Part shown: piece after piece, positions 1 to 16,688 of the stretch
How positions within the stretch are numbered: the stretch's first letter is position 1
Layout of the letters: each line of letters opens with the position of its first letter
IMG/VR virus record: IMGVR_UViG_2529293040_000016
Direction: 5' to 3' (one strand)
From: a virus
Taxonomy: Duplodnaviria > Heunggongvirae > Uroviricota > Caudoviricetes
Length of the DNA stretch: 16,688 bases
Translations under genes and position numbers: made by a program
Notes under the pieces: model-generated
The model's input: the letters and a program-made list of their open reading frames with translations, nothing else
What the model was told of the DNA's origin: nothing
Database searches by the model: none

Positions 1-6
1 TGAACA

Positions 7-2477: not shown

Positions 2478-2569
2478 TTTGTTTTACCTCATTACAGATT
2501 TAAGGGTGAACAAATCCCTGCCATTGCTGGCATATAAGAATGAAACCGGATGTTTATTACGGAACTGTT

Positions 2570-2761
2570 TTAAAGACCTGCCGGGATTTCGTTATTATCC
2601 TGGTGAATAACTTTATCGACCGGGTAACAGTTACCGGGAATTTTCTGTTCGGTTGCTGCAGTCACACACTCCTGCATTGTCCTGTGAACACTGACTGCAA
2701 TATCAACTGGCTCTCCGGAAACAAGAAAAACTGTCAGAACAAGTGCAAATGCTGTATTCAT
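2570..2761 (-). CDS. ydfD: Small membrane protein, YdfD-like (63 aa, N-terminal hydrophobic helix)
   Basis: ORF track 2570..2815; the internal ATG at 2761 has AGGA 8 nt upstream and overlaps the dicB stop as ATGA. Product MNTAFALVLTVFLVSGEP... is 63 aa with a single hydrophobic segment. Size and position immediately downstream of dicB match Qin ydfD from memory. Confidence 0.6.
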   Translation of the reverse strand: MNTAFALVLTVFLVSGEPVDIAVSVHRTMQECVTAATEQKIPGNCYPVDKVIHQDNNEIPAGL

Positions 2762-2946
2762 TGCCAGCATCCTTTTTGTATCGGACGTAAACGGGCCAGC
2801 ATTGAAAGAATGCATATTTTATTTAATAGCTCCCGTTCGTGTTTTCTCTTGTTAATGGCATCTTCAGTAAATACAGGGTTACTGATAGTGACACCAATTT
2901 CAAAACAACCTTCAGACGTATTAACGTTTGGTAATAACGTTTCCAT
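2758..2946 (-). CDS. dicB: Cell division inhibitor DicB (62 aa)
   Basis: Within track ORF 2758..3051; ATG at 2946 has GAGGA 7 nt upstream. Product METLLPNVNTSEGCFEIGVTISNPVFTEDAINKRK... matches my recollection of E. coli DicB nearly residue for residue. Lies directly downstream of the dicF sequence, as in Qin. Confidence 0.8.
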   Translation of the reverse strand: METLLPNVNTSEGCFEIGVTISNPVFTEDAINKRKHERELLNKICILSMLARLRPIQKGCWQ

Positions 2947-3120
2947 TATCGCGTCCTCAACAATGAATTTTGTGATGTGGTGCCTGGTGCCTCCAGGTGA
3001 CGTTAACCAGTTAACAATTAACGCCGGATACAGAGAATCCACCCATAACACTGTTTTTGGTTTTAACTGTTCCGCGTGCGCTCAGCCGCATTCACCGCAT
3101 CACAAAATTCACTTTAAAAA

Positions 3121-3173
3121 CGGCGGCAGAGCAGTCACGGAGTAAAACTGATACCGCCAAACGTCACCAGAAA
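3121..3173 (-). ncRNA. dicF: DicF small regulatory RNA (ftsZ-targeting sRNA of Qin-type prophages)
   Basis: Reverse complement of 3121-3173 reads TTTCTGGTGACGTTTGGCGGTATCAGTTTTACTCCGTGACTGCTCTGCCGCCG, essentially identical to the DicF sequence as I remember it, followed by a U-run on the minus strand. Correct position upstream of dicB. Confidence 0.8.
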
Positions 3174-3504
3174 ATTGATAACAGAGGGCGTTGCAGCGGG
3201 GTTGTCGCTTAAGCGTATGGTCAACCTGACAACCCGGTGTCCTCAACGGGGAAGGAATAACCCCGCCATACTTACCGCCGCGCCATTTCGCGGAGTGCCA
3301 CAACCGGAAGCGCACGGTCGAACTAAATTTAACGACACCGTACAGAGAGACCAATTTCGCCGTGCGCTTTCGCGTTATGCCCTGACTTTTCAGGGACATA
3401 TCCTTTCAGTAAACTGTCAGTGCCGGATGTTCACCCGTGTCCGGCGCACGCACTCCACCTGACCCGTGGAGAACTCCTTAATTACCAACCCTCAGGAGGG
3501 TGAA

Positions 3505-3783
3505 ATGGATAAAAAGCAAATTGAGGCCCTGCAATCTATTATTGAAAAACAAGATGAAGCTATCAGGATTCTTTCATATCGCACTGATATGATACTAAAT
3601 ATGCTTTCTGCATTAACGGCTGCGCTTGGTGGTACAAAAACAAACGTATACCGCGAAGTTGTTATTCAACAGATAGATAAATTTGAAAAAACCATACCAG
3701 GTATTAATGCTCATCTTGCAGAACAAGAGAAAGACCATGCTCTTATGGCAATTTCTTCAGTAGCTCTCCCGAAAGTTGAGTAG
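3505..3783 (+). CDS. Small predicted coiled-coil protein of unknown function, convergent to the early-left operon
   Basis: Track ORF 3466..3783; the ATG at 3505 is preceded by a strong SD (AGGAGGG, 5 nt spacing). Product MDKKQIEALQSIIEKQDEAIRIL... has heptad-like composition. Its 3' end overlaps the 3' end of the minus-strand 137-aa gene. Confidence 0.55.
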   Translation: MDKKQIEALQSIIEKQDEAIRILSYRTDMILNMLSALTAALGGTKTNVYREVVIQQIDKFEKTIPGINAHLAEQEKDHALMAISSVALPKVE

Positions 3784-4156
3784 TTTTAATTGTTGTTTTG
3801 AAATAATCACTGCTTTCACATTTGAGTGATTTCATGGCAATCCAAATGCGGGCCTCTGTGCCTGCATTTGGTTCCAGTTGCTGTAGACGTTTTGCGTCTT
3901 CCAAAAGTAAGGCGATAATGTGTTTCAGCTTCTCATCATTTGCTTGATTCTTGTTTTCAGGCGAATTCTGTCCGCCGAATAGGCGCTTCTCTTCATACAG
4001 ACCTATAAAGGCACGACGCACGTTACCGGATATAGTATCGATGGTTTCTTTTTCTACGGTACTCAGGTCAAGAGTCGCCAGTTGAGAGCGAACCACATTC
4101 GATGCCATTTCCTGGAATGGTACTGGTAAATCTTTAAATTCCATCGTCAACCTCAT
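3743..4156 (-). CDS. Hypothetical protein (137 aa) in dicB-type operon
   Basis: Track ORF. Start overlaps the stop of the upstream small gene as TGATG; an alternative ATG at 4144 has GAGG upstream. No family recognised. Confidence 0.6.
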   Translation of the reverse strand: MRLTMEFKDLPVPFQEMASNVVRSQLATLDLSTVEKETIDTISGNVRRAFIGLYEEKRLFGGQNSPENKNQANDEKLKHIIALLLEDAKRLQQLEPNAGTEARIWIAMKSLKCESSDYFKTTIKTTQLSGELLKKLP

Positions 4157-4308
4157 CAGTCAGTGTTTCTGGTTAACCAGCGACGCGCGCCAGCTTCAGT
4201 TTTAAACGTTTTGCTTCTGGTATACGTCATCGCGGTAAACGTGCCGTCCTGGTTGGGGAACACGCCACATACCAGAGATTCGTTGTTGCCAAGATTGAGC
4301 ATATCCAT
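4156..4308 (-). CDS. Small protein (about 50 aa), first gene of the leftward operon (YdfA-like by size and position)
   Basis: Track ORF 4156..4389; the internal ATG at 4308 has GAGG 5 nt upstream, whereas the longer N-terminal extension has no SD. Naming is inference from synteny only. Confidence 0.45.
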   Translation of the reverse strand: MDMLNLGNNESLVCGVFPNQDGTFTAMTYTRSKTFKTEAGARRWLTRNTD

Positions 4309-4493
4309 GTTGACCTCATTTCCCCTTAACGCCGGGGTAGCGGAACAAAAACCTGCTGCATAGTTATTAAAGTTGAACCCTGCCGTCATGTTCTTACGCC
4401 TCGGGCTGGCTACTTAACCCCTGACCACTGCCTGGTAACTCGAAGTATTGCCCTGCATTCTGTGGGGCGGGGTGGGTTGGTATGAAAAGAAGG

Positions 4494-4532
4494 ATACCCA
4501 TAGGTATTTAAAAAGTAAATACCTATGGGTAA
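4494..4532. promoter_or_regulatory. 39-bp near-perfect palindrome (ATACCCATAGGTATTTA - 5 bp - TAAATACCTATGGGTA), candidate left operator/promoter region
   Basis: Inverted repeat read directly from the sequence, between the repressor 3' end (4574) and the first leftward gene (4308). Half-site CCATAGGTA recurs in the repressor/cro intergenic region. Could alternatively act as an AT-rich terminator hairpin. Confidence 0.5.
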
Positions 4533-4573
4533 ATTTTTGCGGGGTCTTAACTGGTGACTAGTTGTTTGGTGAG

Positions 4574-4992
4574 CTATGATGCGTTTTGTGCTTTCTTTTT
4601 ACGGATTTCTTCGTAGATCATATTGTAATACTGTTTTTTCTCTTCAAGAGTTTTTAATAATTTATCCGCTTCACTTTCTGGCAGTTCGTCTAAGAGATCT
4701 AAAAAAATACGTTGTCGTGGCGTTAGAACCCTTGTTTCATAACTGGAGGCTGTGTTCGTTGATGATGAAACGATACCATCCATCCATCCCCGGGGTAACC
4801 CAAAGGACTCTTCGATAATCTCCACCATATCATCAGCGATCCGTTTTTTCCCTTTTTCCCCTCTGGGTACAACATTCTTGATACATAAGAAGGCTCGCGC
4901 CCGATCTTTCTGGCCACGTTAACCGCTTTACCATCGCATTTCTCATCACGAATTTTGATGAGTTGCTGTCGTCTAAATTCATATTTGTCCAT
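4574..4992 (-). CDS. Immunity repressor (N-terminal HTH) encoded in two overlapping frames; apparent -1 frameshift at an A/G homopolymer tract
   Basis: Track ORFs 4723..4992 (HTH-like ...GKAVNVARKIGREPSYVSRML...) and 4574..4828 (protein-like C-terminus ...LTPRQRIFLDLLDELPESEADKLLKTLEE...) are on the same strand, offset by -1. Both frames are open across the minus-strand GGGGAAAAAGGGAAAAAACGG tract (plus-strand 4843-4862). The ATG at 4992 has no SD. Confidence 0.6.
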
Positions 4993-5092
4993 AGGTAAAT
5001 AATAGATGCGATTACCGCAAGGTAAACAACCTGTGGGTATTGACTTTTGTTTACCTGCGGGTGTTCTTTGCTGTGTTTACTAAGGAGTAGCT
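4993..5092. promoter_or_regulatory. Divergent promoter/operator region between repressor and cro-like gene
   Basis: Repeated half-sites CCATAGGTAAAT (4989-5000), an imperfect inverted repeat ACCGCAAGGTAAAC (5013-5026) / GTTTACCTGCGGGT (5048-5061), and a TTGACT -35-like hexamer at 5040-5045. Promoter -10 elements not confidently assigned. Confidence 0.5.
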
Positions 5093-5374
5093 ATGGAAGA
5101 ATTAAGAATATTTCTCAATTCTCTTTCGTCAGATGAACAGCGTATGTTTGCATGCGAGTGTGGTACCAGCATCGGTTATCTAAGAAAGGCATTGAGTAAA
5201 GGTCAAGTGTTAGGGGCATCGTTATGTGTCCTTATTGAGCGAGCCAGTAATGGTGAAGTTACACGTCAGCAACTAAGGCCTTTTGATTGGATGAATATTT
5301 GGCCCGAGCTGGAAGATACCAAAACGTTAACACAACCACTTTCTAGGAGCTTGATTCATGAAAATCAAGCATGA
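5093..5374 (+). CDS. Cro-like HTH regulator (YdaS/DicC-type)
   Basis: Track ORF, 93 aa, strong SD AAGGAG upstream. HTH-like segment ...CECGTSIGYLRKALSKGQ.... Divergent from the repressor, which is the classical cro position. Confidence 0.75.
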   Translation: MEELRIFLNSLSSDEQRMFACECGTSIGYLRKALSKGQVLGASLCVLIERASNGEVTRQQLRPFDWMNIWPELEDTKTLTQPLSRSLIHENQA

Positions 5375-5783
5375 ACACATCCGCATGGCGATGAATGTCT
5401 GGGCGCATCCGGACGGCGAAAAAGTGCCGGCTGCGAAAATTACCAAAGCGTATTTCGAGCTGGGAATGACGTTCCCGGAACTGTATGACGACAGCCATCC
5501 GGAAGCCCTGGCCCGTAATACCCAGAAAATTTTCCGTTGGCTGGATAAAGACACCCCTGATGCTGTTGAAAAAATGCAGGCTCTGTTACCGGCGATCGAA
5601 AAGGCGATGCCGCCTTTGCTGGTGGCCCGTATGCGCAGCCACAGTTCTGAATATTACCGTGAGATCGTCGAACGGAGGGATCGGCTGGTGAAGGATGTCG
5701 ATGATTTTGTTGCGTCAGCGGTTGTTTTGTATGACCAGATGAATCGCGGCGGCCCGGCAGGGAATGCTGTGGTGATGCACTAA
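5358..5783 (+). CDS. YdaT-like / CII-like early regulator (141 aa)
   Basis: Track ORF with TAGGAG SD 8 nt upstream. Sequence resembles Rac YdaT as I recall it; position is that of cII. Family assignment is from memory, not computed. Confidence 0.7.
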   Translation: MKIKHEHIRMAMNVWAHPDGEKVPAAKITKAYFELGMTFPELYDDSHPEALARNTQKIFRWLDKDTPDAVEKMQALLPAIEKAMPPLLVARMRSHSSEYYREIVERRDRLVKDVDDFVASAVVLYDQMNRGGPAGNAVVMH

Positions 5784-5805
5784 AAGCACGGTGTTCGGGG
5801 GTTTT

Positions 5806-6768
5806 ATGAGCAGCAAGCTTCATGGTCTTGTCTGGGAAGGGTGCGCCTTCACCGGCATGATCTTATCCAGGGTGGCGGTTATGGCCCGTCTTGCAGACTA
5901 CAGCAATGACGAGGGCGTGTCATGGCCTGCCATTGAAACTATCCGGCGTCAGATCGGTGCAAGAAGTGAATCCACAGTGAAATCGGCTATTGCAGAACTG
6001 GCGAAAGAGGGCTGGCTGACGAAGGAAGAGCGTAAGGTCGGTGGGCGTAATGTAAGCAATATCTATCGGCTTAATGTGGAAAAACTCGAAGCAGCTGCGG
6101 CGGCGGCGCGTGAGTCATATAAACCGAAAAGAAAAATTAGCCCGGCAAAAAATGACCCGTTAACAGTTGACCCGTCAAATATTGACCCCTCAACGGTTGA
6201 CCCGTCAAATTTTGATGGATCAACTGTTGATAAAAAACTGCCGATTAGGGGGGCGATGATTGACCCCGATCCGTCAGTATTAAAACCTGATCCGTCAGAT
6301 AAAAGATCTTCTTGTCCGGACGCTTCGCAACCGGACCCGCAGACGGCTGAACAGGATTTTTTAACCCGACACCCTGACGCGGTTGTGTTCAGTGCGAAAA
6401 AACGCCAGTGGGGAAGTCAGGAAGATTTGGTGTGCGCACAGTGGATCTGGGGACGAATCGTGAGTCTTTACGAGCAGGCGGCCAGCTATGATGGCGAGAT
6501 CGCTAGACCGAAAGAACCCAACTGGACAGCATGGGCCAATGACGTTCGCACAATGCGGATGCTGGATGGCAGAACTCACAGACAAATTTGTGAAATGTTT
6601 GGGCGTCTCCAGCGGGATTCGTTCTGGGTAAAAAACATCATGAGTCCGGCAAAACTCCGGGAAAAATGGGATGAACTGGTTATCCGCCTGGGGCGTTCGC
6701 CTGCGCAGCGTTGCGTGAATCACATTTCTGAACCGGACACTGAAATTCCGCCGGGCTTCAGGGGGTAA
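5806..6768 (+). CDS. Replication initiator (O-like) with N-terminal winged-HTH domain and in-gene iterons
   Basis: Track ORF 5791..6768; the ATG at 5806 follows a G-rich SD. The N-terminus (...LSRVAVMARLADYSNDEGVSWPAIETIRRQIGARSESTVKSAIAELAKEGWL) is typical of phage replication-initiator HTH domains. The central DP(S/L)(T/N)(V/I) peptide repeats are encoded by tandem DNA iterons. Confidence 0.75.
   Translation: MSSKLHGLVWEGCAFTGMILSRVAVMARLADYSNDEGVSWPAIETIRRQIGARSESTVKSAIAELAKEGWLTKEERKVGGRNVSNIYRLNVEKLEAAAAAARESYKPKRKISPAKNDPLTVDPSNIDPSTVDPSNFDGSTVDKKLPIRGAMIDPDPSVLKPDPSDKRSSCPDASQPDPQTAEQDFLTRHPDAVVFSAKKRQWGSQEDLVCAQWIWGRIVSLYEQAASYDGEIARPKEPNWTAWANDVRTMRMLDGRTHRQICEMFGRLQRDSFWVKNIMSPAKLREKWDELVIRLGRSPAQRCVNHISEPDTEIPPGFRG
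6153..6242 (+). repeat. Iteron array: about six tandem 15-bp repeats (TGACCCGTCAAATNT-like), probable replication origin inside the initiator gene
   Basis: Direct repeats with 15-bp period starting at 6153, 6168, 6183, 6198, 6213 and 6228, the last two degenerate and followed by an A-rich stretch. Further related copies lie at about 6260 and 6288. Same architecture as ori-lambda within gene O. Confidence 0.65.
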
Positions 6769-6808
6769 GTGTTAATTTCTGGTCATGAGGTAATTTTCAG
6801 GAGGGCTT

Positions 6809-7231
6809 GTGGCAAAAGTTTTTACACAAGAAGAGCGGGAAAAAATTAAAGGGCAGGTTGTTGAACTCGTACGCCAGAGTGGGCGCGAGACGTTACGACA
6901 ACTGGAAACTAAAACTGGGGCAACAAGATATCTGATGAGCGTTCTGGCCAGAGAGCTGGTTGCCAGTGGCGATGTATACAACTCTGGTTACGGGTTATTC
7001 CCGTCTGAACAGGCGCGTAAGGACTGGCAAAATGCCCGTAAAAAGCTCTCAAGGGCAAAGCTGAAGAAACCATCTGCGGTTGATCCGGACCTTATCTGGT
7101 CATTACCTGACGGAGAAATACGTCGCTACGACAGGCGTCAGAACATAATCTGTCGCGAGTGCCGGAAGAGCGAAGCTATGCAGCGCGTACTGGCGTTTTA
7201 TCAGGGGAATTTTGAGGAGGTGGTGCGGTGA
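6809..7231 (+). CDS. Hypothetical protein (140 aa)
   Basis: Track ORF with GTG start and AGGAGG SD at 6794-6799. No Walker A motif, so not a DnaC/P-type helicase loader. Function unknown. Confidence 0.65.
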   Translation: MAKVFTQEEREKIKGQVVELVRQSGRETLRQLETKTGATRYLMSVLARELVASGDVYNSGYGLFPSEQARKDWQNARKKLSRAKLKKPSAVDPDLIWSLPDGEIRRYDRRQNIICRECRKSEAMQRVLAFYQGNFEEVVR

Positions 7232-7474
7232 GTGAATCAAAATGCCAGGTTAATGGCAACAAGATAGAACCATGTGCAGCACTGGCAAAGTCCCTTGAGC
7301 GTGATGCTGAATACACGATGCGAAAAGGTCTGCTGATATACAAAATCTGAAATGAGAGTTTAACTCGCGGTCCTGATTTTGTGATGTTGCGTTCCGGTGA
7401 ATTTTCTAAATTACCAGTTCGGGTTTCATTTTGTCCGTTCTGTGGTGAAAGTCTGAAAACGTGGGAGAACAGAA

Positions 7475-7786
7475 ATGAATGAAATTAAAGAAATACCAGT
7501 AGTACGTGATGAATATGGCTGCTGGACGCATCCTGAATATGAAAAATTCTGTGACGGTCGGGAATATATTTCAACGGAAGAGTTTAACGCCTGGATGGAG
7601 GAAAATAATCTTCAATACGGCCTCTGCTTCAGAGATGAAGGATGTGCTGACCTTGATGCGTGTGATGCTGATATTTCTGCATGGGAACCGGAACGACCAG
7701 AGGGCAATGGATGGTTTATTGGTTCAATACATGACACCGAAGATGGCCCGGTTTGTGTATGGCTGAGAAATAAGGTCGAAGCATAA
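7475..7786 (+). CDS. Hypothetical acidic Cys-rich phage protein (103 aa), nin-region type
   Basis: Track ORF. Codon usage and GC match the prophage backbone. No family assigned. Confidence 0.65.
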   Translation: MNEIKEIPVVRDEYGCWTHPEYEKFCDGREYISTEEFNAWMEENNLQYGLCFRDEGCADLDACDADISAWEPERPEGNGWFIGSIHDTEDGPVCVWLRNKVEA

Positions 7787-7918
7787 AGGCTATAAACCGA
7801 CTAACAACTAAATACTGAAGATTTAAATCAGAAACGATTTTTATTAAATCCTTAACCGGAGGGATTCCTGCACCCTCAAATCATCAGGAGGCCGCCCGAA
7901 AGGGCGGTGGAGATAATA

Positions 7919-8413
7919 ATGGGAATAACTAAAGAACGATTGTTGGAAATAGCAAACCTTAGTGATTGGGCATTAAGTGATGAGAGAATTGTTTCTCCTC
8001 ATGCTTATGAGTCAGTTACAAGTATAGAAATAACAACAATGGCTAGAATGCTGCTTGGTTATTTCAAAATAGAAAATAAAAAACAGATGGATAGTAATGT
8101 TGATATATGTGAGATTTTAGACGATTGGGGGGCTTGGGTTGTGGCTGGTAATAGTTCTATTGATTGGCAGGAAATAGCTGATAAATATAAAAATGTTGTT
8201 CCTCATGGTAAAAAATCACGTCGTCAGTGCAGCAATGATGAAGGGCGAATTATTGACATTAGTATCCTTAGGTTAGAAAGATATAAGCAACAAGAATATG
8301 AGTTAATTGTTGCTCATTTCGTGATTGGTTTATCTCTTCGTGCTATTGCAAAGCAACAAGGATGTTCAGATGGAACAATTCGTAAAAGATTGCAAAAAGC
8401 CTTAGGTTTTTGA
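7919..8413 (+). CDS. HTH regulator with sigma-70 region-4 / LuxR-like C-terminal helix-turn-helix (164 aa), encoded in the low-GC island
   Basis: Track ORF 7907..8413; the ATG at 7919 has GGAG 6 nt upstream. C-terminus ...EYELIVAHFVIGLSLRAIAKQQGCSDGTIRKRLQKALGF resembles sigma region 4 / LuxR HTH. Markedly AT-rich. Convergent with the three-gene cassette. Confidence 0.65.
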   Translation: MGITKERLLEIANLSDWALSDERIVSPHAYESVTSIEITTMARMLLGYFKIENKKQMDSNVDICEILDDWGAWVVAGNSSIDWQEIADKYKNVVPHGKKSRRQCSNDEGRIIDISILRLERYKQQEYELIVAHFVIGLSLRAIAKQQGCSDGTIRKRLQKALGF

Positions 8414-8435
8414 CTGGATATATAGCAATTACCAG

Positions 8436-9077
8436 TTAAGAGTCAGCGGTTTTTTTACCAGTGTAATGGTATAAGGATACTCCCATGTGTCTTACATGAT
8501 ATGGAAGCGCTGTTGCTGGATGCTTTGTGATACTCTTAAAGCGGAGGGGAGAGCCTTCCGCTTCAATTTCTGCGTCCGAAACGGTCGTAGAGAAAAATTC
8601 TTTCCATTCATTGAATTTTACTGCTGATTTGTCAGACTTTATATAAATTAGAATTCCTCCATGATCGTCACGTGACGTACCCGTGCCGTAACGTTCGGTT
8701 AGCTGAATCCAGCCATTATGAATAGATTTGGGGCCTCTCCATAATTTTGCTTCACCGATCCATTCGAATTTTCCGAATTGATGTTTAACTAATAAATCAA
8801 CGTGACCGCCATGTTGAGTATCATGTTCAACATCATAAAACCTACCTTTCAGGAAATTTTTGATCGACGCTGTTAGCTCGTCCTCTCCCCACTTAGCATC
8901 TTGATAGAAGTGTTTGTCATTTTCTAAATTCTGAATAGCGTCGTCTAAATCTTCATAGAGTTGCTTTACAAAAATATTTTTGTCTGCAGCTAATTTTCTT
9001 TGAACCATTCCCCTAAATTCAGGATCCATTCTAATTAATGATTGAAGGTCTGCAGTACAGATGTTTACATCACTCAT
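8436..9077 (-). CDS. Cassette gene 3: putative PD-(D/E)xK-fold nuclease (213 aa)
   Basis: Track ORF 8436..9140; the ATG at 9077 has GGAGAG upstream and lies 4 nt after the stop of the preceding gene. Motif GGHVDLLVK ... FEWIGEAK fits the hhhD ... hhE-x-K spacing of restriction-endonuclease-like nucleases. Assignment is inference from motif only. Confidence 0.6.
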   Translation of the reverse strand: MSDVNICTADLQSLIRMDPEFRGMVQRKLAADKNIFVKQLYEDLDDAIQNLENDKHFYQDAKWGEDELTASIKNFLKGRFYDVEHDTQHGGHVDLLVKHQFGKFEWIGEAKLWRGPKSIHNGWIQLTERYGTGTSRDDHGGILIYIKSDKSAVKFNEWKEFFSTTVSDAEIEAEGSPLRFKSITKHPATALPYHVRHMGVSLYHYTGKKTADS

Positions 9078-9498
9078 GCAGACTCTCCAAAAGACTCGAA
9101 GGAGTAAAGTATGGATAAAGATACTGGCTAAAATTATCAACCAATTCGCCAGTTTCTGGATGGTAAAAACTTCCTGTGTCTAAAGCATAGGAAATAAGAT
9201 CATCTTCAACTGGTATTGGTTCTTCCGTTAAATTATCAATGTATTGAAAATGCATATCCAATAGATGTGCTTTATAGCTAGATAAATAATCAGTTGCTTT
9301 TATTAGCAGGATATAGTCATCTTTCGTATCAGTTAGATAGGTTAAACCATTGATAAGGGTTTTGTATGTAAAGTGATTGATATTTTTAGCATCTTTACTA
9401 ACCAGAAAAAGAAAAAGATCACGACACACACTGCGAACAGGATCATTAAAATCCTGCTCTATTTGCGTGATAATGTCGTGATATATACTCTTTTTCAT
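9070..9498 (-). CDS. Cassette gene 2: acidic hypothetical protein (142 aa)
   Basis: Track ORF. Its ATG overlaps the stop of the upstream ORF as ATGA, indicating translational coupling. No recognisable domain. Confidence 0.6.
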   Translation of the reverse strand: MKKSIYHDIITQIEQDFNDPVRSVCRDLFLFLVSKDAKNINHFTYKTLINGLTYLTDTKDDYILLIKATDYLSSYKAHLLDMHFQYIDNLTEEPIPVEDDLISYALDTGSFYHPETGELVDNFSQYLYPYFTPSSLLESLHE

Positions 9499-10585
9499 TT
9501 ATGGCCTGATGATCTCGCTCTTCTTTTCTCTTCACAGGACTTAACAGAATCCAATATTTTTTCAACAATAAATATAATCGAATCAATGTTGTTACAGTTC
9601 TTCGCAATTGCTTCATGCAACCTAATTCTAGGATTATCAAGCATTGTCCTTTTTCCTGGTAATATTAACTCTACTGATAAAATATGTGAAGAACTTTGTG
9701 GTAAATCCCAAATTTTTCCCAACTTAAACTTTGTCAATATTGGGCTTGCGGACTCTCCACTATGATGGTAAACATCTTGACGCAAACACTTTTGACTTGG
9801 TTTGAGTTTTAAAGAACTTGTATTGCCATCTGAGGTGATAAAAGATACATGAGAAATTCTGCCATCTACTTTTTCGTAAAGATCTTGTATTGAACCAAAT
9901 AATTCAAGAGGATTGTTTAAAATAACGCCAGCTTCTTTTTTATAAATTTAGCCACAAGGTATTGTTGAGGCTGTGATTCACTTCTTGGAAGGATAGATAA
10001 ATCAATCGTAAGAATTAATATTTTTTCTGCAGGCATTAGCATGATGGTATTAAAGCATTGCGTGACTTGGCGTGTTTTGCATTTTATTTCTCCACCATTA
10101 GCACGTAATTCCATACCCGCATCGCTAAGATGTGTTGGGTCAAGCTCTATCACTTCAGTGTAATACGCTTTGGATAAAAAAACAGCAGTGTCAATTTGTT
10201 TATCACGAATGATATCTTGACGTAGTTCAGCAAAATGCAGCTCAGTATCAGCAACTAACAGCTCCTCTCTGGATAAAGGAATTGGGTATTTTTCTGAGAA
10301 GGGGCTATTGTCCTTTTTCTGATTTGTGAAAATTGTTTGTAATTTTGCTACGTCTTCATCGGTGATTCTATAAATAGAAAGTAATCGATTCCCGCTAAAA
10401 ATTAAACCTTTCCAGAAATCGTCGATTCTGTCTTTTAGGTCGGGATTATGCTGAACTACACTATTTACACGTTCAATAAAAAGGGGTAATCCTTGGGCCG
10501 TTACACCCAGTGATGAACCAAGAAGCTTACGGGTGTTGCGCCAGCCAAAGCGTGAATTGATGTTTTTTACTGTTTGCTCAAGCAT
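9495..10585 (-). CDS. Cassette gene 1: protein of unknown function encoded in two frames (zero-frame product 222 aa; -1 fusion product about 363 aa)
   Basis: Track ORFs 9917..10591 and 9495..9785; the ATG at 10585 has AAGGAAG 6 nt upstream. The frame of the downstream ORF is open all the way up to 9947 and is -1 relative to the upstream ORF. The overlap contains A_AAA_AAG in the zero frame (plus-strand 9935-9941). Confidence 0.55.
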
Positions 10586-10726
10586 TAACACTTCCTTAAT
10601 TTTCCCTTAACAATTTAGGGTGCTAAACTTTTTTGCGCAGTTTACATAAAAAAATAGTGCGTACGCAAAAACTATCTAACATGATGAGCTTTAACCGGGA
10701 AATTTGTATATGTTGTGAGCATAAAG

Positions 10727-10755
10727 TTGGCTGAGAAATCTAAAACGGGTAGAAT
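10727..10755 (+). promoter_or_regulatory. Candidate hok/mok mRNA promoter (TTGGCT - 17 bp - TAGAAT)
   Basis: Hexamers read from the sequence at 10727-10732 and 10750-10755. A transcript from here to the terminator at about 11181 would be about 420 nt, typical of hok mRNAs. Not verified. Confidence 0.35.
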
Positions 10756-10874
10756 GACTGCGGGTGCTTGAGGCTATCTGTCTCAGGCATGAACACCAAA
10801 AGGCAGATAGAGAAAAGCCCCAGTTAACATTACGCGTCCGGCAAGACGCTTAACATTAATCTGAGGCCATATCT

Positions 10875-11087
10875 ATGCTCTACACACGTAGGTTAGCCTC
10901 TTACGTGCCGAAAGGCAAGGAGAAGCAGGCTATGAAGCAGCAAAAGGCGATGTTAATCGCCCTGATCGTCATCTGTTTAACCGTCATAATGACGGCACTG
11001 GTAACGAGGAAAGACCTCTGCGAGGTACGAATCCGAACCGGCCAGACGGAGGTCGCTGTCTTCACAGCTTACGAACCTGAGGAGTAA
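10875..11087 (+). CDS. mok: Mok-like regulatory ORF (in-frame N-terminal extension of hok)
   Basis: 70-aa track ORF containing the hok ORF in the same frame, as in chromosomal mokC/hokC loci (recalled). Confidence 0.55.
   Translation: MLYTRRLASYVPKGKEKQAMKQQKAMLIALIVICLTVIMTALVTRKDLCEVRIRTGQTEVAVFTAYEPEE
10932..11087 (+). CDS. hok: Hok/Gef-family type I toxin (51 aa)
   Basis: MKQQKAMLIALIVICLTVIMTALVTRKDLCEVRIRTGQTEVAVFTAYEPEE is a clear Hok-family sequence (TM helix plus conserved ...TRKDLCEV...RTGQTEVAVF...). AAGGAG SD 9 nt upstream of the ATG. Confidence 0.85.
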   Translation: MKQQKAMLIALIVICLTVIMTALVTRKDLCEVRIRTGQTEVAVFTAYEPEE

Positions 11088-11154
11088 GAGACCAGGCGGG
11101 GGAGAATCCCTCGCCACCTCTGATGTGTCAGGCATCCTCAACGCACCCGCACTT

Positions 11155-11181
11155 AACCCGCTTCGGCGGGTTTTGTTTTTT
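11155..11181 (+). terminator. Rho-independent terminator downstream of hok
   Basis: Stem CCCGC (11157-11161) / GCGGG (11166-11170) with TTCG loop, followed by TTTTGTTTTTT. Confidence 0.6.
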
Positions 11182-11253
11182 CCTGGCATTCTGGTTTACA
11201 ATTCGCACGCCAGCCTGAACAACTGGCACCTGCTGCGCCAGCAGAGACAACCG

Positions 11254-11532
11254 ATGGCGCACGATACCAAATTACACAATTCTGATGATTCTGCCGTCTT
11301 TGCCAGCAGGCACGGGCGGCGTTCCCGCACTTTCAAATCTGACTGGTTCCAGCATCCCCCATGCACTGAAGAACAGGCCGAGTGGCTAATTCAGTGCTAC
11401 CGCAGACACGGATACGAGATTAAGAAAGCCCTCAGCCTCGATTATCGTCACTGGATAATCTCCGTCAGGCTTCCTTACTCCGAACGACCACCGCGTCCGT
11501 CCCGCACATTCCAGCAACGCATCTGGAGGTAA
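11254..11532 (+). CDS. Hypothetical protein (92 aa), in the position occupied by rem in Qin
   Basis: Track ORF 11125..11532 trimmed to the first ATG beyond the hok terminator. Weak SD. Function unknown. Confidence 0.45.
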   Translation: MAHDTKLHNSDDSAVFASRHGRRSRTFKSDWFQHPPCTEEQAEWLIQCYRRHGYEIKKALSLDYRHWIISVRLPYSERPPRPSRTFQQRIWR

Positions 11533-11533
11533 C

Positions 11534-12583
11534 GTGCGGGTATTACTTCGACCTGTTCTGGTACCGGAACTCGGGCTGGTGATCGTTAAGCCGGGCCGTG
11601 AATCCATGCCGGTATTCCACAATACCCGGGTACTGGTGGAGCCGGAACCGAAAAGCATGCGTAATCTGCCGTCCGGGGTCGTTCCTGCCGTTCGCCAGCC
11701 GCTGGCGGAGGATAAATCATTACTGCCATTTTTCAGCGACGAACGAGTGATTCGTGCTGCTGGTGGCGCTGGCGCATTGTCTGACTGGTTACTGCGCCAT
11801 GTTAAATCCTGCCAGTGGCCACACGGTGATTATCACCACAGTGAAACCGTCATTCACCGTTATGGTACCGGCGCAATGGTGTTGTGCTGGCACTGCGACA
11901 ACCAGCTGCGCGACCAGACCTCCGAATCACTCGGGCAACTTGCTCACCAAAACCTGTCAGCATGGATGATTGACGTCATACGCCATGCAATGAATGGCTC
12001 GCAGGAACGGGAATTATCGCTGGCTGAATTATCCTGGTGGGCGGTCCGCAATCAGGTGGCGGACGCGCTACCGGAAGCGGTATTACGTCGTTCGCTGGGG
12101 TTGCGTGCGGAAAAAATCCGCTCAATGTACCGTGAAAGCGACATCGTACCGGGAGAGCAGACCGCCACCAGCATACTGAAACAGCGCACAAAAAATCTTG
12201 CGCCGCTGCCTCACGCCCACCAGCAACAGAACCCACCACAGGAAAAGACGGTGGTCAGCATTGCCGTTGATCCTGAGTCTCCGGAATCTTTCATGAAACG
12301 ACCTAAACGTCGCCGCTGGGTTAACGAGAAATACACACGCTGGGTGAAGACACAGCCGTGTGCGTGTTGTGGTAAGCCAGCCGACGATCCCCATCACCTG
12401 ATTGGTCATGGTCAGGGCGGAATGGGGACAAAATCTCACGATATTTTCACGCTACCGCTGTGTCGGGAGCATCACAACGAGCTTCATGCGGATCCGCTGA
12501 CGTTCGAAGAAAAGCATGGTTCTCAGGTTGATTTAATTTTTCGTTTTCTTGATCACGCCTTTGCAACTGGCGTGCTTGGGTAA
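11534..12583 (+). CDS. ydfU: YdfU-like prophage protein (DUF968-type) with C-terminal Cys/His-rich HNH-like motif
   Basis: 349-aa track ORF with GTG start. C-terminal CACCGKPADDPHHLIGHGQGGMGTKSHDIFTLPLCREHHNELH resembles a zinc-binding HNH-type motif. Position upstream of rusA/Q matches Qin ydfU. Name from memory. Confidence 0.65.
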   Translation: MRVLLRPVLVPELGLVIVKPGRESMPVFHNTRVLVEPEPKSMRNLPSGVVPAVRQPLAEDKSLLPFFSDERVIRAAGGAGALSDWLLRHVKSCQWPHGDYHHSETVIHRYGTGAMVLCWHCDNQLRDQTSESLGQLAHQNLSAWMIDVIRHAMNGSQERELSLAELSWWAVRNQVADALPEAVLRRSLGLRAEKIRSMYRESDIVPGEQTATSILKQRTKNLAPLPHAHQQQNPPQEKTVVSIAVDPESPESFMKRPKRRRWVNEKYTRWVKTQPCACCGKPADDPHHLIGHGQGGMGTKSHDIFTLPLCREHHNELHADPLTFEEKHGSQVDLIFRFLDHAFATGVLG

Positions 12584-12595
12584 AAGAGGTGACTG

Positions 12596-12955
12596 ATGCT
12601 CATAGATTTGGTTTTACCTTACCCGCCGACGGTGAACACTTACTGGCGACGCCGTGGCAGCACATATTTTGTATCAAAAGTCGGTGAGCGTTATCGCCGT
12701 GATGTGGCGCTTATTGTTCGCCAGCAGCAACTGAAATTAAACCTGTCCGGAAGGCCGGCAATAGAAATTATTGCAGAGCCACCGGATAAGCGCCGTCGTG
12801 ACCTGGACAATATCCTGAAGGCACCACTGGATGTACTGACGCATGCGGGGCTGCTCATAGACGACGAGCAGTTTGATGAAATTAATATTGTGCGCGGTCA
12901 GCTTGTTCCTGGTGGGCGGTTGGGGATAAAAATCACAGAACTGGAGTATGCATGA
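12596..12955 (+). CDS. rusA: Holliday-junction resolvase RusA
   Basis: 119 aa. Conserved RusA signatures read by eye (N-terminal LPYPPTVNTYW, catalytic region PDKRRRDLDN, C-terminal GGRLGIKITE) align with E. coli RusA from memory. AGAGGTG SD. Stop overlaps the Q start as ATGA. Confidence 0.85.
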   Translation: MLIDLVLPYPPTVNTYWRRRGSTYFVSKVGERYRRDVALIVRQQQLKLNLSGRPAIEIIAEPPDKRRRDLDNILKAPLDVLTHAGLLIDDEQFDEINIVRGQLVPGGRLGIKITELEYA

Positions 12956-13641
12956 ATAACCAGTATTTACAGTTTGTTCGTGAGCAACTCATGATTGCCA
13001 CCGCCGATTTGAGTGGATCAACAAAAGGGCAGCTTGAGGCCTGGCAGGAGAATGCCATGTTTGATACAGGGCGTTACAGGCGTAAAAAAATCCGGTACCG
13101 CGATGAAGTGACTGGAAAAATGATAACGCGGGATAATCCACCAATCCCGGGAAAGCAATCGCTGGCGAAGGGGGCGTCAATTCCTCTCGTCAGTCCGGTT
13201 GAGTTTTTGACATCATCGTGGCGGCGGGCTGTTCTGTCTCTTGAAGAACATCATAAAGCCTGGTTGTTGTGGTGTTACAGCGGGAGTATTTGTTGGGAAT
13301 ATCAGATCGCGATAACACAGTGGGCGTGGAATGAATTTAATACTCAATCCGGTACCAGAAAAATTGCTGGGAAAACGCAGGAACGCCTGAAAAAATTAAT
13401 CTGGCTGGCGGCGCAGGCAGTAAAAGCAGAACTTTTTGGTGGGGAAGGTTATGAATATCAGGAGCTGGCATTACTGGCGGGAGTGACAACTAAAAACTGG
13501 TCCAAAACATTTACTCGTCACTGGGTTGCAATGAAACACATTTTTCACCGACTGGATAGTGAGGCTTTATTATTTGTAATGAGAACACGTTCAAAACAAA
13601 AGGCGGCATTTTCAAAGCAAAGTGTTGCAAAAGTAGATTGA
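12952..13641 (+). CDS. Late-gene antiterminator Q-like protein (229 aa)
   Basis: Track ORF immediately followed by a pR'-like promoter and strong intrinsic terminator, and preceded by rusA, which is the canonical nin-Q-pR'-tR' arrangement. Assignment is mainly by context. Confidence 0.65.
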   Translation: MNNQYLQFVREQLMIATADLSGSTKGQLEAWQENAMFDTGRYRRKKIRYRDEVTGKMITRDNPPIPGKQSLAKGASIPLVSPVEFLTSSWRRAVLSLEEHHKAWLLWCYSGSICWEYQIAITQWAWNEFNTQSGTRKIAGKTQERLKKLIWLAAQAVKAELFGGEGYEYQELALLAGVTTKNWSKTFTRHWVAMKHIFHRLDSEALLFVMRTRSKQKAAFSKQSVAKVD

Positions 13642-13653
13642 AAGGCATATATT
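13625..13653 (+). promoter_or_regulatory. pR'-like late promoter (TTGCAA - 17 bp - TATATT) with downstream qut-like region
   Basis: Hexamers at 13625-13630 and 13648-13653, overlapping the 3' end of the Q-like gene. Followed by a short structured leader and a terminator. Confidence 0.5.
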
Positions 13654-13706
13654 TCATGCAAATCTGATATTTTGCCGATTTTGTACGTGATGGCAAAATC
13701 AAACAA

Positions 13707-13731
13707 AACCCGCCCACAAGCGGGTTTTTTT
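13707..13731 (+). terminator. tR'-like rho-independent terminator
   Basis: Stem CCCGC (13709-13713) / GCGGG (13720-13724) with a 6-nt loop, followed by TTTTTTT (13725-13731). Confidence 0.75.
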
Positions 13732-13857
13732 GTGCCACTTATCTCGGATAGACATGGTGAATGCGCTGGTGGAGGAGATAAGGGTGATTTTTGTATGCTT
13801 GCAAGTAACCGGCTCATTTAAACCGTCTGGTCTGTTTCCTCCGGCTCTACAAAAATA

Positions 13858-14533
13858 ATGTCCATCATTTTTAATGGACACTATCGTATGAAACACCGGA
13901 CCTGGATCACTGAAGCTTTACGTCTTCACTTTGAAGAACATTTACCCCGGGTTGTGGCCGGGCGTCGCCTGGGTGTACCAAAATCAACAGTTTGTAGTAT
14001 GTTCGTGCGCTTTCGGAGAGCTGGCCTTTCGTGGCCTTTGCCCGCAGGCATGTCGGAGCAGGAACTTGATGCCTGCCTTTACGGACAATTTTCCACGGTA
14101 CCAGTCGTACGTCCTGAAAGCACCGTTATATCCGAAGCCCCCGTGGTAAAAACGTCCCCGGCGGCCCAACTTCCCTTATGAGTTTAAAATCGCCTTAGTG
14201 GAGCAGTCACTGCAGCCCGGAGCCTGTGTGGCGCAGATCGCCCGGGAAAACGGAATCAACGATAACCTGCTCTTCAACTGGCGCCATCAATACCGGAAAG
14301 GTGGCCTGCTGCCTTCCGGAAAAAATATGCCGGCACTGCTTCCCGTGACGTTAACGCCGGAGCCGGATAATAAAATCCCGGCCCCCGCACAGGAACCAGA
14401 GCAGATAAATACACCGTCCGACAGTCTGTGTTGTGAGCTGGTTCTGCCGGCCGGAACTCTCAGGCTTAAAGGTAAACTGACGCCGGCGTTATTACAGACA
14501 CTTATCCGCGAAATAAAAGGGAGCAGCCACTGA
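13858..14533 (+). CDS. tnpA: IS66-family tnpA, split between two frames (13858..14181 and 14150..14533)
   Basis: The downstream frame carries the conserved TnpA core (RRPNFPYEFK...PGACVAQIARENGINDNLLFNWRHQY) but has a TAA immediately upstream of it. The upstream 107-aa ORF (HTH-like) ends 30 nt later in the +1-offset frame. The overlap contains AAAAA and CCCC runs. Confidence 0.5.
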
Positions 14534-14880
14534 TGATATCTCTCCCTGCAGGTTCGCGTATCTGGCTGGTTGCAGGTATCACCGATATGCGAAATGGCTT
14601 TAACGGCCTGGCATCAAAAGTTCAGAACGTCCTGAAGGATGACCCGTTCTCCGGACACCTGTTCATCTTCCGCGGACGCCGGGGTGACCAGATAAAAGTG
14701 TTGTGGGCTGACAGTGACGGACTGTGCCTCTTCACCAAACGCCTGGAGCGGGGCCGCTTCGTCTGGCCAGTCACCCGTGACGGCAAGGTGCACCTTACTC
14801 CGGCTCAGTTATCCATGCTTCTTGAAGGTATCAACTGGAAGCACCCGAAACGAACGGAACGCGCTGGAATCCGCATATAA
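14533..14880 (+). CDS. tnpB: IS66-family TnpB (Orf2, 115 aa)
   Basis: Sequence MISLPAGSRIWLVAGITDMRNGFNGLASKVQNVL...FRGRRGDQIKVLWADSDGLCLFTKRLERGRFVWP is the characteristic IS66 Orf2 signature. Start overlaps the tnpA stop as TGATG. Confidence 0.85.
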   Translation: MISLPAGSRIWLVAGITDMRNGFNGLASKVQNVLKDDPFSGHLFIFRGRRGDQIKVLWADSDGLCLFTKRLERGRFVWPVTRDGKVHLTPAQLSMLLEGINWKHPKRTERAGIRI

Positions 14881-14899
14881 CCCGTTGTAAAGTGAGGAT

Positions 14900-16471
14900 A
14901 TGGACACCTCACTTGCTCATGAGAACGCCCGCCTGCGGGCACTGTTGCAGACGCAACAGGACACCATCCGCCAGATGGCTGAATACAACCGCCTGCTCTC
15001 ACAGCGGGTGGCGGCTTATGCTTCCGAAATCAACCGGCTGAAGGCGCTGGTTGCGAAACTGCAACGTATGCAGTTCGGTAAAAGCTCAGAAAAACTTCGT
15101 GCAAAAACCGAACGGCAGATACAGGAAGCACAGGAGCGAATCAGCGCACTTCAGGAAGAAATGGCGGAAACGCTGGGTGAGCAATATGACCCGGTACTGC
15201 CATCCGCCCTGCGCCAGTCTTCAGCCCGTAAACCGTTACCGGCCTCACTTCCCCGTGAAACCCGGGTTATCCGGCCGGAAGAGGAATGCTGTCCTGCCTG
15301 TGGTGGTGAACTCAGTTCTCTGGGATGTGATGTGTCAGAGCAACTGGAGCTTATCAGCAGCGCCTTTAAGGTTATCGAAACACAACGTCCGAAACAGGCC
15401 TGTTGCCGGTGCGACCATATCGTGCAGGCACCAGTACCTTCAAAACCCATTGCACGCAGTTATGCCGGAGCGGGGCTTCTGGCCCATGTTGTCACCGGGA
15501 AATATGCAGACCATCTGCCGTTATACCGCCAGTCAGAAATATACCGTCGTCAGGGCGTGGAGCTGAGCCGTGCCACACTGGGGCGCTGGACAGGTGCTGT
15601 TGCTGAACTGCTGGAGCCGCTGTATGACGTCCTGCGCCAGTATGTGCTGATGCCCGGTAAAGTCCATGCTGATGATATCCCCGTCCCGGTCCAGGAGCCG
15701 GGCAGCGGTAAAACCCGGACAGCCCGGCTGTGGGTCTACGTCCGTGATGACCGTAACGCCGGTTCACAGATGCCCCCGGCGGTCTGGTTCGCGTACAGTC
15801 CGGACCGGAAAGGTATCCATCCACAAAATCACCTGGCCGGTTACAGCGGTGTGCTTCAGGCCGATGCTTACGGTGGTTACCGGGCGTTATACGAATCCGG
15901 CAGAATAACGGAAGCCGCGTGTATGGCTCATGCCCGGAGAAAAATCCACGATGTGCATGCAAGAGCGCCCACCTACATCACCACGGAAGCCCTGCAGCGT
16001 ATCGGTGAACTGTATGCCATCGAGGCAGAGGTCCGGTGCTGTTCAGCAGAACAGCGTCTGGCGGCAAGAAAAGCCAGAGCCGCGCCACTGATGCAGTCAC
16101 TGTATGACTGGATACAGCAACAGATGAAAACACTGTCGCGTCACTCAGATACGGCAAAAGCGTTCGCATACCTGCTGAAACAGTGGGATGCACTGAACGT
16201 GTACTGCAGTAATGGCTGGGTGGAAATCGACAACAACATCGCAGAGAACGCCTTACGGGGAGTGGCCGTAGGCCGGAAAAACTGGATGTTCGCGGGTTCC
16301 GACAGCGGTGGTGAACATGCGGCGGTGTTGTACTCGCTGATCGGCACATGCCGTCTGAACAATGTGGAGCCAGAAAAGTGGCTGCGTTACGTCATTGAAC
16401 ATATCCAGGACTGGCCGGCAAACCGGGTACGCGATCTGTTGCCCTGGAAAGTTGATCTGAGCTCTCAGTAA
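14900..16471 (+). CDS. tnpC: IS66-family transposase TnpC (523 aa)
   Basis: N-terminal leucine-zipper-like coiled coil, Cys4 zinc finger (CPACGG...CCRCDH), and a long catalytic region typical of IS66 transposases. GTGAGG SD upstream. Confidence 0.85.
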
Positions 16472-16610
16472 ATATCAATACGGTTCTGACGAGTCGCTTA
16501 CGATAAATGCACCGGCATCATCATAAAAAGTGAGCCAGCCAAATGGAAGGTATCGTTAAACTCACCGGTAGTGTCAGTGGGTCGTCTGAGATGCCTGCAT
16601 GAGTTATCAG

Positions 16611-16642
16611 AGCCATCAGTACTTAACTGGTGGCTTTTTTTA
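16611..16642 (+). terminator. Rho-independent terminator in the flank right of the IS
   Basis: Stem AGCCATCAG (16611-16619) / CTGGTGGCT (16627-16635) with one central mismatch, loop TACTTAA, then TTTTTTT. An RBS and ATG (16677) of an unrelated ORF begin just before the window ends. Confidence 0.5.
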
Positions 16643-16688
16643 TTGTTGTCAGCTTCCGGATAACGGGAGACGGGGTATGGACCAGATG

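Follow-up and report, generated by a model that had tools for sequence, protein, structure and literature searches.

Sequencing platforms prone to homopolymer error, such as 454, Ion Torrent, and early nanopore, are a known source of false frameshifts in draft genomes. Frame changes at A runs can also have a biological role, as in dnaX and the transposases of the IS3 and IS1 families, where programmed −1 frameshifting takes place on A_AAA_AAG, and decay is known from the cryptic lambdoid prophages Rac, DLP12, and Qin. The locus described here is like the products of homopolymer-error platforms in that its indels are confined to A/T runs or to positions next to them, miscalls become steeply more frequent with run length, deletions dominate, and the errors vary between sibling drafts, duplicate contigs, and IS copies and are gone in independent assemblies. 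It departs from them in that at two sites the miscall is repeated in five of six drafts, a more systematic pattern than pure random error would give. With Rac, DLP12, and Qin the locus shares a lambdoid early gene set, an IS insertion, and a deletion, but its frameshifts are off the phylogeny and occur in core genes as well, and the prophage haplotype is intact elsewhere. As in dnaX and IS3/IS1, in-phase heptamers are present at two breaks and a −1 shift would restore the protein; unlike in those systems, the split is unconserved, the heptamers result simply from shortening an in-phase A7, no stimulatory structure lies downstream of the ISCro1 tract, and one of three sites reported in an earlier note on this DNA needs a +1 shift.

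Five broken genes in a prophage contig of E. coli DEC2A

The window, by which we mean the whole stretch of DNA that was analyzed (16,688 bp), is the entire contig AIFA01000004.1 from the draft genome of E. coli DEC2A; the accession range AIEV–AIHS corresponds to the DECA collection. The contig consists of the early region of a lambdoid prophage, carrying recE-like exonuclease, dicB, hokD, ydfU (DUF968), rusA, and Q genes, and one ISCro1 element. This prophage region with its IS insertion lacks approximately 4.1 kb relative to E2348/69. The earlier note had described three frame changes, in the repressor, cassette gene 1, and tnpA, and had called two of them −1 shifts. All three are present where it had placed them, and the repressor and cassette gene 1 are each one base short, a −1 shift; the tnpA break differs, being a two-base deficit (A7 to A5) that is equivalent to a +1 shift. 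Its count was too low, however, as two further lesions had been overlooked (T6 to T5 at 8407–8411 and TT to T at 1367). The genes and lesions, with the protein lengths of the intact genes, are as follows.

7–2477, minus strand: exonuclease gene with PF16473 Rv2179c-like C-terminal domain, intact 823 aa
1359–1367, no strand: lesion 1, one T of TT lost at 1367, next to a T6 run (1359–1364); reads T6-CG-T
4574–4992, minus strand: CI-like prophage repressor (WP_000362153.1), intact 139 aa
4844–4849, no strand: lesion 2, T7 to T6 in the repressor; reference T7
7919–8413, plus strand: Q-family antiterminator (PF06530), intact 173 aa
8407–8411, no strand: lesion 3, T6 to T5 in the Q-family antiterminator; reference T6
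9495–10585, minus strand: cassette gene 1, hypothetical protein (WP_000893384.1), intact 363 aa
9936–9941, no strand: lesion 4, T7 to T6 in cassette gene 1; reference T7
13805–16501, plus strand: ISCro1 (IS66 family), with tnpA, tnpB (14533–14880), and tnpC (14900–16471)
13858–14533, plus strand: ISCro1 tnpA (WP_001339397.1), intact 225 aa
14148–14152, no strand: lesion 5, A7 to A5 in tnpA; intact ISCro1 A7

All five lesions are deletions, with six bases lost and none gained, and every one lies in or adjoins an A/T run of six or seven bases. Runs of at least six bases make up 1.3% of the window yet hold four of the five lesions, a placement far beyond random expectation. The exonuclease gene is split into ORFs at 1326–2477 (383 aa) and 7–1347 (446 aa), the repressor into ORFs at 4723–4992 and 4574–4828 on the minus strand (89 and 84 aa), cassette gene 1 into a 222-aa N-terminal piece at 9917–10585 and a 96-aa ORF at 9495–9785, both on the minus strand, and tnpA into ORFs at 13858–14181 (107 aa) and 14198–14533 (111 aa). 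The Q-family antiterminator is shortened to 164 aa and its C-terminus is changed, an in-frame TGA arising from the T5 at 8407–8411. When the missing base or bases are added back, uninterrupted ORFs of 139, 363, 225, 173, and 823 aa are obtained for the repressor, cassette gene 1, tnpA, the antiterminator, and the exonuclease, respectively.

The lesion at 1367 is itself outside any long run; the site reads T6-CG-TT in E2348/69 and in two sibling drafts, L005 and L007 being intact. With regard to naming, one source calls the repressor “Phage repressor protein CI”. Pfam and PADLOC searches suggested no function for any of the three cassette genes, and for cassette gene 1 neither returned a match. 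No target-site duplication was found flanking ISCro1 at 13805–16501.

Run lengths in related assemblies, core DNA, and complete genomes

Compared with E2348/69 (L001), the window is 99.6% identical, with 49 substitutions, 31 of which fall within one mosaic patch, and four one-base deletions, each in or beside a T run; there are no insertions. Outside the mosaic patch, this amounts to four indels against 18 substitutions, and the indel-to-substitution ratio of natural E. coli divergence is far lower. Three assemblies (L030, L034, and L036) share the SNP haplotype of the DECA drafts and show no indels against E2348/69. The first of these is a 5.1-Mb contig (UFZD01000005.1) in which ISCro1 is located as in DEC1A and DEC1B. 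At each of the prophage sites, the runs are of full length in independent assemblies of this haplotype. The T6 forms at 4844 and 9936, common to five of the six DECA drafts, had looked universal, but DEC1A (L033) has T7 at both sites, and the repressor and cassette gene 1 runs are likewise T7 in L030, L034, and L036. The T5 at 8407 is present in three of the six DECA drafts (the window, L004, and L008) and in none of L005, L007, L033, and the independent assemblies.

Among the sibling drafts, run-length errors form a patchwork that is in conflict with the SNP phylogeny. With drafts designated by locus id and sites in sibling drafts given in E2348/69 coordinates, runs are under-called at 4687 in L005 and L008, at 9409 in the window, L004, and L008, and at 12180 in L004 and L005, and all pairs among these three sites fail the four-gamete test. 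Both T6 alleles (4844 and 9936) are found in, and missing from, each of two SNP groups. Discrepancies of the same kind exist inside the DEC2A assembly. Positions 1–3306 of the window were assembled twice, as they also form the end of DEC2A contig 41 (L025) in a 3306-bp overlap, and the copies on contig 4 and contig 41 differ by six indels and a single substitution. On contig 41 the exonuclease gene reads T5-CG-TT, an equal one-T deficit located 3 nt from that of the window. The ISCro1 element of the window has no substitutions relative to an intact element (L002), from which it differs solely by the change from A7 to A5, and the tract is A5 in one of the three DEC2A copies and A6 in the other two, one of which also has an A3 to A4 change; apart from these runs, all three match the intact element. 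In the ISCro1 copy of L005, a sibling draft, there are no substitutions and three other A-run indels; that of sibling L004 is perfect.

The frequency of miscalls depends on run length. In five DECA drafts taken together, miscalls affected 1 of 318 five-base runs, 9 of 134 six-base runs (6.7%), and 12 of 42 seven-base runs (28.6%), and the rate for runs shorter than five is close to zero except at one poor contig end. The earlier note had proposed looking for run-linked breaks elsewhere in the same genome, and in the 7.39 kb of core chromosome sampled here (ppnP to iraP) such breaks were indeed found: DEC2A differs from E2348/69 by two substitutions and two indels, both of them A7 to A6, one truncating psiF from 106 to 74 aa and the other in an intergenic A7. 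Seven-base runs are shortened in two of four cases in this core sample versus two of eight in the prophage, and the lesions are not enriched in the prophage over core genes.

In complete genomes, no more than 0.5% of repressor and ISCro1 tracts have a short allele, and no cassette gene 1 tract does. The exact T6 form of the repressor site occurs in 2 of the 822 complete E. coli genomes that hold the segment, and the T6 form of cassette gene 1 in 0 of 14. At the ISCro1 tract, A5 occurs in 0 of 1857 complete-genome records (4366 places) and A6 in 10 records, with more than 99% of the copies in complete genomes being A7. The truncated 222-aa product of cassette gene 1 is confined to drafts of the DECA collection and two Logan runs. 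Logan assemblies of SRR070669 and SRR490662 again carry the T6 alleles at 4844 and 9936, and the ISCro1 A5 is also present in the Logan assembly of a later run, SRR11867891. Outside the DECA collection, the ISCro1 tract was encountered with A5, A6, and A8, the last seen once, in AEZI02, ADUM01, BPVU01, and the Logan assemblies of SRR11867891 and SRR21973105, and some of the length variation at this tract may be real. One further contig, from ERR4562137, has five homopolymer indels in 2 kb. Logan contigs with T6 or A5 (SRR070669, SRR490662, ERR4562137, and SRR11867891) were considered as independent confirmation and set aside, their platforms not being established.

Base-calling error weighed against decay, recoding, and phase variation

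On the strength of these sequence comparisons, the five frame changes are very likely consensus base-calling errors in the DEC2A draft rather than mutations of the bacterium. The lengths of A/T homopolymers would have been under-called in the DEC2A assembly, as in the DECA collection to which it belongs, and the real genome would read T7 in the repressor, T7 in cassette gene 1, A7 in tnpA, T6 in the Q-family antiterminator, and T6-CG-TT in the exonuclease gene, all five then being very probably intact single ORFs. The sequence comparisons show that there are such errors and what pattern they follow. The platform was probably flow-based pyrosequencing (454), as inferred in part from a sister project. 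That project, run in the same year by the same center, was sequenced on 454 Titanium FLX and assembled with Celera (PMC3491183). The DECA genomes themselves were announced by Hazen in 2012. The earlier note had named systematic under-calling of homopolymers as typically behind such a pattern, a reading that the evidence here supports; it had also held that decay or genuine recoding could equally account for the breaks, and this equivalence is unsupported in view of the core indels, the A6 copies of ISCro1, and the intact runs in assemblies of the same haplotype.

Were the lesions instead real, they could be pseudogenizing mutations that replication slippage at A/T runs had introduced as a cryptic prophage and its IS decayed. 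The prophage is interrupted by an IS and has lost approximately 4.1 kb relative to E2348/69, natural indels also prefer homopolymers, two T6 alleles are common to five drafts, and the repressor T6 allele is present in two complete genomes. We nevertheless regard this reading as highly unlikely: core DNA carries the same type of lesion (psiF and the intergenic A7), the lesions conflict with the SNP phylogeny and are missing from same-haplotype assemblies including that of DEC1A, the 3.3-kb duplicates inside one assembly are separated by six indels and one substitution, three identical IS copies have differing run lengths, and the proportion of four indels to 18 substitutions outside the mosaic patch is far above that of natural E. 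coli divergence. The lesions are not inherited along the phylogeny of the element. A mismatch-repair-deficient mutator lineage was also considered and rejected, since the indels disagree with the SNP tree and are not the same in the duplicate copies within the assembly. Genuine recoding, in which programmed −1 ribosomal frameshifting, or else transcriptional slippage at the A runs, would yield the full-length proteins, is suggested by slippery heptamers that lie in phase on the coding strand (repressor, A_AAA_AAC; cassette gene 1, A_AAA_AAG); a −1 shift is needed in both and, in cassette gene 1, would yield exactly the native protein. Taking one A out of an in-phase A7 produces such heptamers by simple arithmetic, however, and the split form is unconserved: among complete genomes, the homologue is a single ORF in 14 of 14 for cassette gene 1 and in approximately 820 of 822 for the repressor, and over 99% of ISCro1 copies are unsplit. 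The tnpA break would need a +1 or −2 shift, for which no known motif is present, and the antiterminator and exonuclease lesions have no recoding logic at all. We regard recoding as extremely improbable. A search for stimulatory RNA structure, carried out downstream of the ISCro1 tract only, found none (MFE −17.4 kcal/mol, z = +1.56 versus shuffles), and, with no such structure, programmed −1 frameshifting at the A7 of intact ISCro1 was rejected.

The runs could also be real hypermutable tracts subject to phase variation, most plausibly the A7 of ISCro1 tnpA, with the contig displaying one real variant. The A5, A6, and A8 forms outside the DECA collection and the ten complete-genome records with A6 point in this direction, but the datasets outside DECA with a variant tract are of platforms not established, more than 99% of complete-genome ISCro1 copies are A7, and none has A5. 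All three DEC2A copies are short and other runs in them vary too, which a technical cause fits better than a site-specific switch. Length variation of the runs among accurate assemblies is at most rare, with some residual doubt for the ISCro1 tract, where rare A6 and A8 variants exist, and we judge phase variation to be very improbable. A narrower proposal concerns this tract alone. The tnpA A7 is an in-phase A_AAA_AAA heptamer situated between the N-terminal and HTH_Tnp_1 domains, and there is a slim chance that it is a natural slippage hotspot and the A5 of the window a real allele. If so, short and long alleles would toggle ISCro1 between a single TnpA with both domains and two products made separately.

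Consequences for annotation of the DECA drafts

Under the base-calling explanation, the frame changes are almost certainly not a real biological feature of DEC2A and the genes are very probably intact. Functional readings of the contig should count all five broken genes as intact, and the present evidence gives no ground for postulating a repressor-defective prophage or an inactive IS. Truncated proteins annotated in the DECA drafts, such as EHU35836.1, EHU35835.1, EHU35850.1, and EHU35856.1, are for practical purposes annotation artifacts. Pseudogene counts taken from DECA drafts would likewise be inflated, with roughly one-quarter to one-half of seven-base A/T runs miscalled. The occurrence on many contigs of the 84-aa C-terminal piece of the repressor and the 74-aa piece of psiF is uninformative, as annotation of an intact gene from an internal start can give the same sequences.

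Gene content and frame lesions of the window

The window is the whole of contig AIFA01000004.1 (16,688 bp) from the E. coli DEC2A draft genome (GCA_000249155.2), a member of the diarrheagenic E. coli (DECA) collection (accession range AIEV-AIHS). The region resembling a prophage of EPEC O127:H6 strain E2348/69, used here as the reference, encodes an exonuclease, dicB, a CI-like repressor, replication genes, a Q-family antiterminator, a three-gene cassette on the opposite strand, hokD, DUF968, rusA, and Q; the two antiterminator genes are unrelated.

Layout of the window
1-13804, lambdoid prophage early region, 99.6% identity to the EPEC O127:H6 E2348/69 prophage
7919-8413, Q-family antiterminator (PF06530; part of it resembles sigma-70 region 4), upstream of the cassette
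8436-10585, minus strand, three-gene cassette (363, 142, and 197 aa)
12952-13641, classical Q (PF06323), downstream of rusA
13805-16501, ISCro1 element (IS66 family)
16502-16688, prophage resumes, 4.15 kb further along E2348/69

Frame lesions (T6, a run of six T, and so on)
1367, adjoining the T6 run at 1359-1364, TT to T, 823-aa exonuclease split
4844-4849, T6 run, 139-aa repressor split
8407-8411, T6 to T5, Q-family antiterminator truncated
9936-9941, T6 run, 363-aa cassette gene split
14148-14152, A5 run, 225-aa ISCro1 tnpA split

The earlier note had listed three frame changes, in the repressor, the cassette gene, and tnpA. All three were found in the sequence, at T6, T6, and A5 runs, but the tally was incomplete, as the lesions at 8407-8411 and 1367 had been overlooked. 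Base-by-base comparison with E2348/69 resulted in 49 substitutions (31 within one 115-bp mosaic patch), four one-base deletions, and no insertions, and the window ISCro1 differs from the intact element solely by A7 to A5, with no substitutions. Four of the five lesions lie inside runs of at least six bases, though such runs make up 1.3% of the window. Putting the missing base(s) back gave full-length ORFs in all five broken genes.

Independent, sibling, and internal comparisons

The strongest evidence for an artefact is provided by clean assemblies of the same haplotype. A look-up of the unbroken cassette protein (363 aa) gave several assemblies of the same prophage, and haplotypes were compared on a substitution matrix. 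Three of these assemblies (L030, L034, and L036) share the SNP haplotype of the DECA drafts, and all three have no indels relative to E2348/69; L030 (UFZD01000005.1), a 5.1-Mb contig, has ISCro1 placed as in DEC1A and DEC1B, with an A7 tract. DEC1A, itself a DECA draft, reads T7 at the repressor and cassette sites, where T6 had seemed universal, and its sole indel is a private G6 to G5 change. Among the five sibling drafts sharing the prophage, the lesions form a patchwork.

Distribution of lesions among sibling drafts (E2348/69 coordinates)
4687, A6 to A5, L005 and L008
9409, T6 to T5, window, L004, and L008
12180, T6 to T5, L004 and L005
9453, T7 to T5, L004 only
7632, 11652, and 13194, L007 only

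Sites 4687, 9409, and 12180 fail the four-gamete test in each pairwise combination. The repressor and cassette T6 alleles are both present and absent in each of the two SNP groups, a pattern incompatible with inheritance. One sibling ISCro1 copy is perfect; another has three A-run indels and no substitutions. Close to a contig end in L007 (AIFD01000014.1, 690-720, tRNA-Ile region), nine single-base deletions fall within ~40 bp, a pattern typical of low coverage at contig ends.

The DEC2A assembly also contradicts itself. Window positions 1-3306 are duplicated in the terminal 3306 bp of DEC2A contig 41 (AIFA01000041.1), including all DEC2A-specific SNPs, and the two copies are six indels and one substitution apart; the exonuclease break is TT to T in the window and T6 to T5 in contig 41, 3 nt away. 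Three DEC2A ISCro1 copies have tracts of A5 (window), A6 with A3 to A4 (L019), and A6 (L021), and are otherwise identical to the intact element. Contig 41 (127.8 kb) runs on into the integrase and ompW, and so shows what truly lies to the left of the prophage.

Run-length dependence and alternative explanations

Breaks at runs elsewhere in the same genome, which the earlier note had proposed looking for, were found. A 7.39-kb sample of the DEC2A core chromosome (ppnP, aroM, aroL, proC, adrA, psiF, phoA, and iraP) differs from E2348/69 by two substitutions and two indels, both A7 to A6, with two of four seven-base runs shortened. One of these (L021 8480, AIFA01000035.1) truncates psiF and is the reason why the DEC2A annotation gives this gene 74 aa; in the protein collection, the 74-aa entry is also assigned to several other DECA strains. 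The lesions are without prophage specificity. Pooled over five drafts, miscalls rose from 1/318 runs of five bases to 9/134 of six and 12/42 of seven, and were close to zero for runs below five bases, one poor contig end excepted. Of 15 seven-base runs examined in DEC2A, 7 came out short.

Homopolymer under-calling, the earlier note's leading reading, is supported by the clean same-haplotype assemblies, the draft patchwork, the self-contradicting assembly, and the run-length dependence. Judged from assembled sequence, the whole lesion set is very probably a sequencing artefact. The inferred cause is a flow-based platform that under-called long A/T runs, with the error passing into the consensus. 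The DECA genomes presumably followed a 454 Titanium FLX and Celera route. A sister E. coli project at the same centre in 2012 sequenced paired-end libraries on 454 Titanium FLX and assembled them with Celera (PMC3491183). Some doubt comes from both T6 alleles being repeated across five of six drafts and also in two Logan assemblies (of public read runs) of unspecified platform.

Three findings contradict prophage decay, under which the lesions are real: core genes are hit as well, the lesions disagree with the phylogeny, and the assembly contradicts itself. Genuine recoding has a single argument on its side: the shortened runs retain in-phase heptamers, A_AAA_AAC in the repressor and A_AAA_AAG in the cassette gene, at which a -1 shift would bring back the protein in either case. 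These heptamers arise automatically when an A7 that is in phase loses one A. Conservation of the split form is lacking, tnpA would require a +1 shift, and no RNA structure was found downstream of the ISCro1 A-tract. Short alleles are very rare in complete genomes: the T6 form was found in 0 of 14 for the cassette gene and 2 of 822 for the repressor. There is a small chance that the tnpA A-run is a real hypermutable tract, given that a few datasets of other projects contain A5, A6, and A8 forms. A7 accounts for more than 99% of finished copies; A6 occurs in 10 of 1857 complete-genome records (4366 places) and A5 in none. The frame changes are not a feature of the biology, and the genes are best treated as unbroken.

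Cassette, ISCro1, and mosaic patch

The three-gene cassette runs counter to prophage transcription between the Q-family antiterminator and hokD, and occurs in just 14 of the 5426 complete genomes of E. coli. A Pfam search of its genes gave no matches, and its only PADLOC hit was marginal (PDC-S54, E = 0.0014). The cassette is a moron that awaits characterisation, and it may be a defence candidate.

The A7 tract of intact ISCro1 (L002 643-654, tnpA codons 97-100; window 14146-14155) forms an A_AAA_AAA heptamer that is in phase. It separates the N-terminal region of the 225-aa TnpA from the HTH_Tnp_1 domain, and a -1 shift there would yield a 107-aa product identical to that of the window A5 allele. 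The element lacks a target-site duplication (left gcttgcaa, right gataaatg; window 13797-13812 and 16494-16509). Beside it, ~4.15 kb of E2348/69 is missing, comprising tRNA-Ile, tRNA-Arg, ISEc13, and most of a DUF6645/SASA gene. In sibling drafts, ISCro1 lies elsewhere, where it replaces ISEc13, and is oppositely oriented. This arrangement suggests that the IS mediated a deletion or rearrangement, or that the contig was mis-joined.

In the exonuclease N-terminal region (window 2328-2442), the 31 substitutions relative to E2348/69 are spaced mostly at multiples of 3 nt. This patch is common to both DEC2A copies of the region and resembles a short tract acquired from a diverged allele by recombination.
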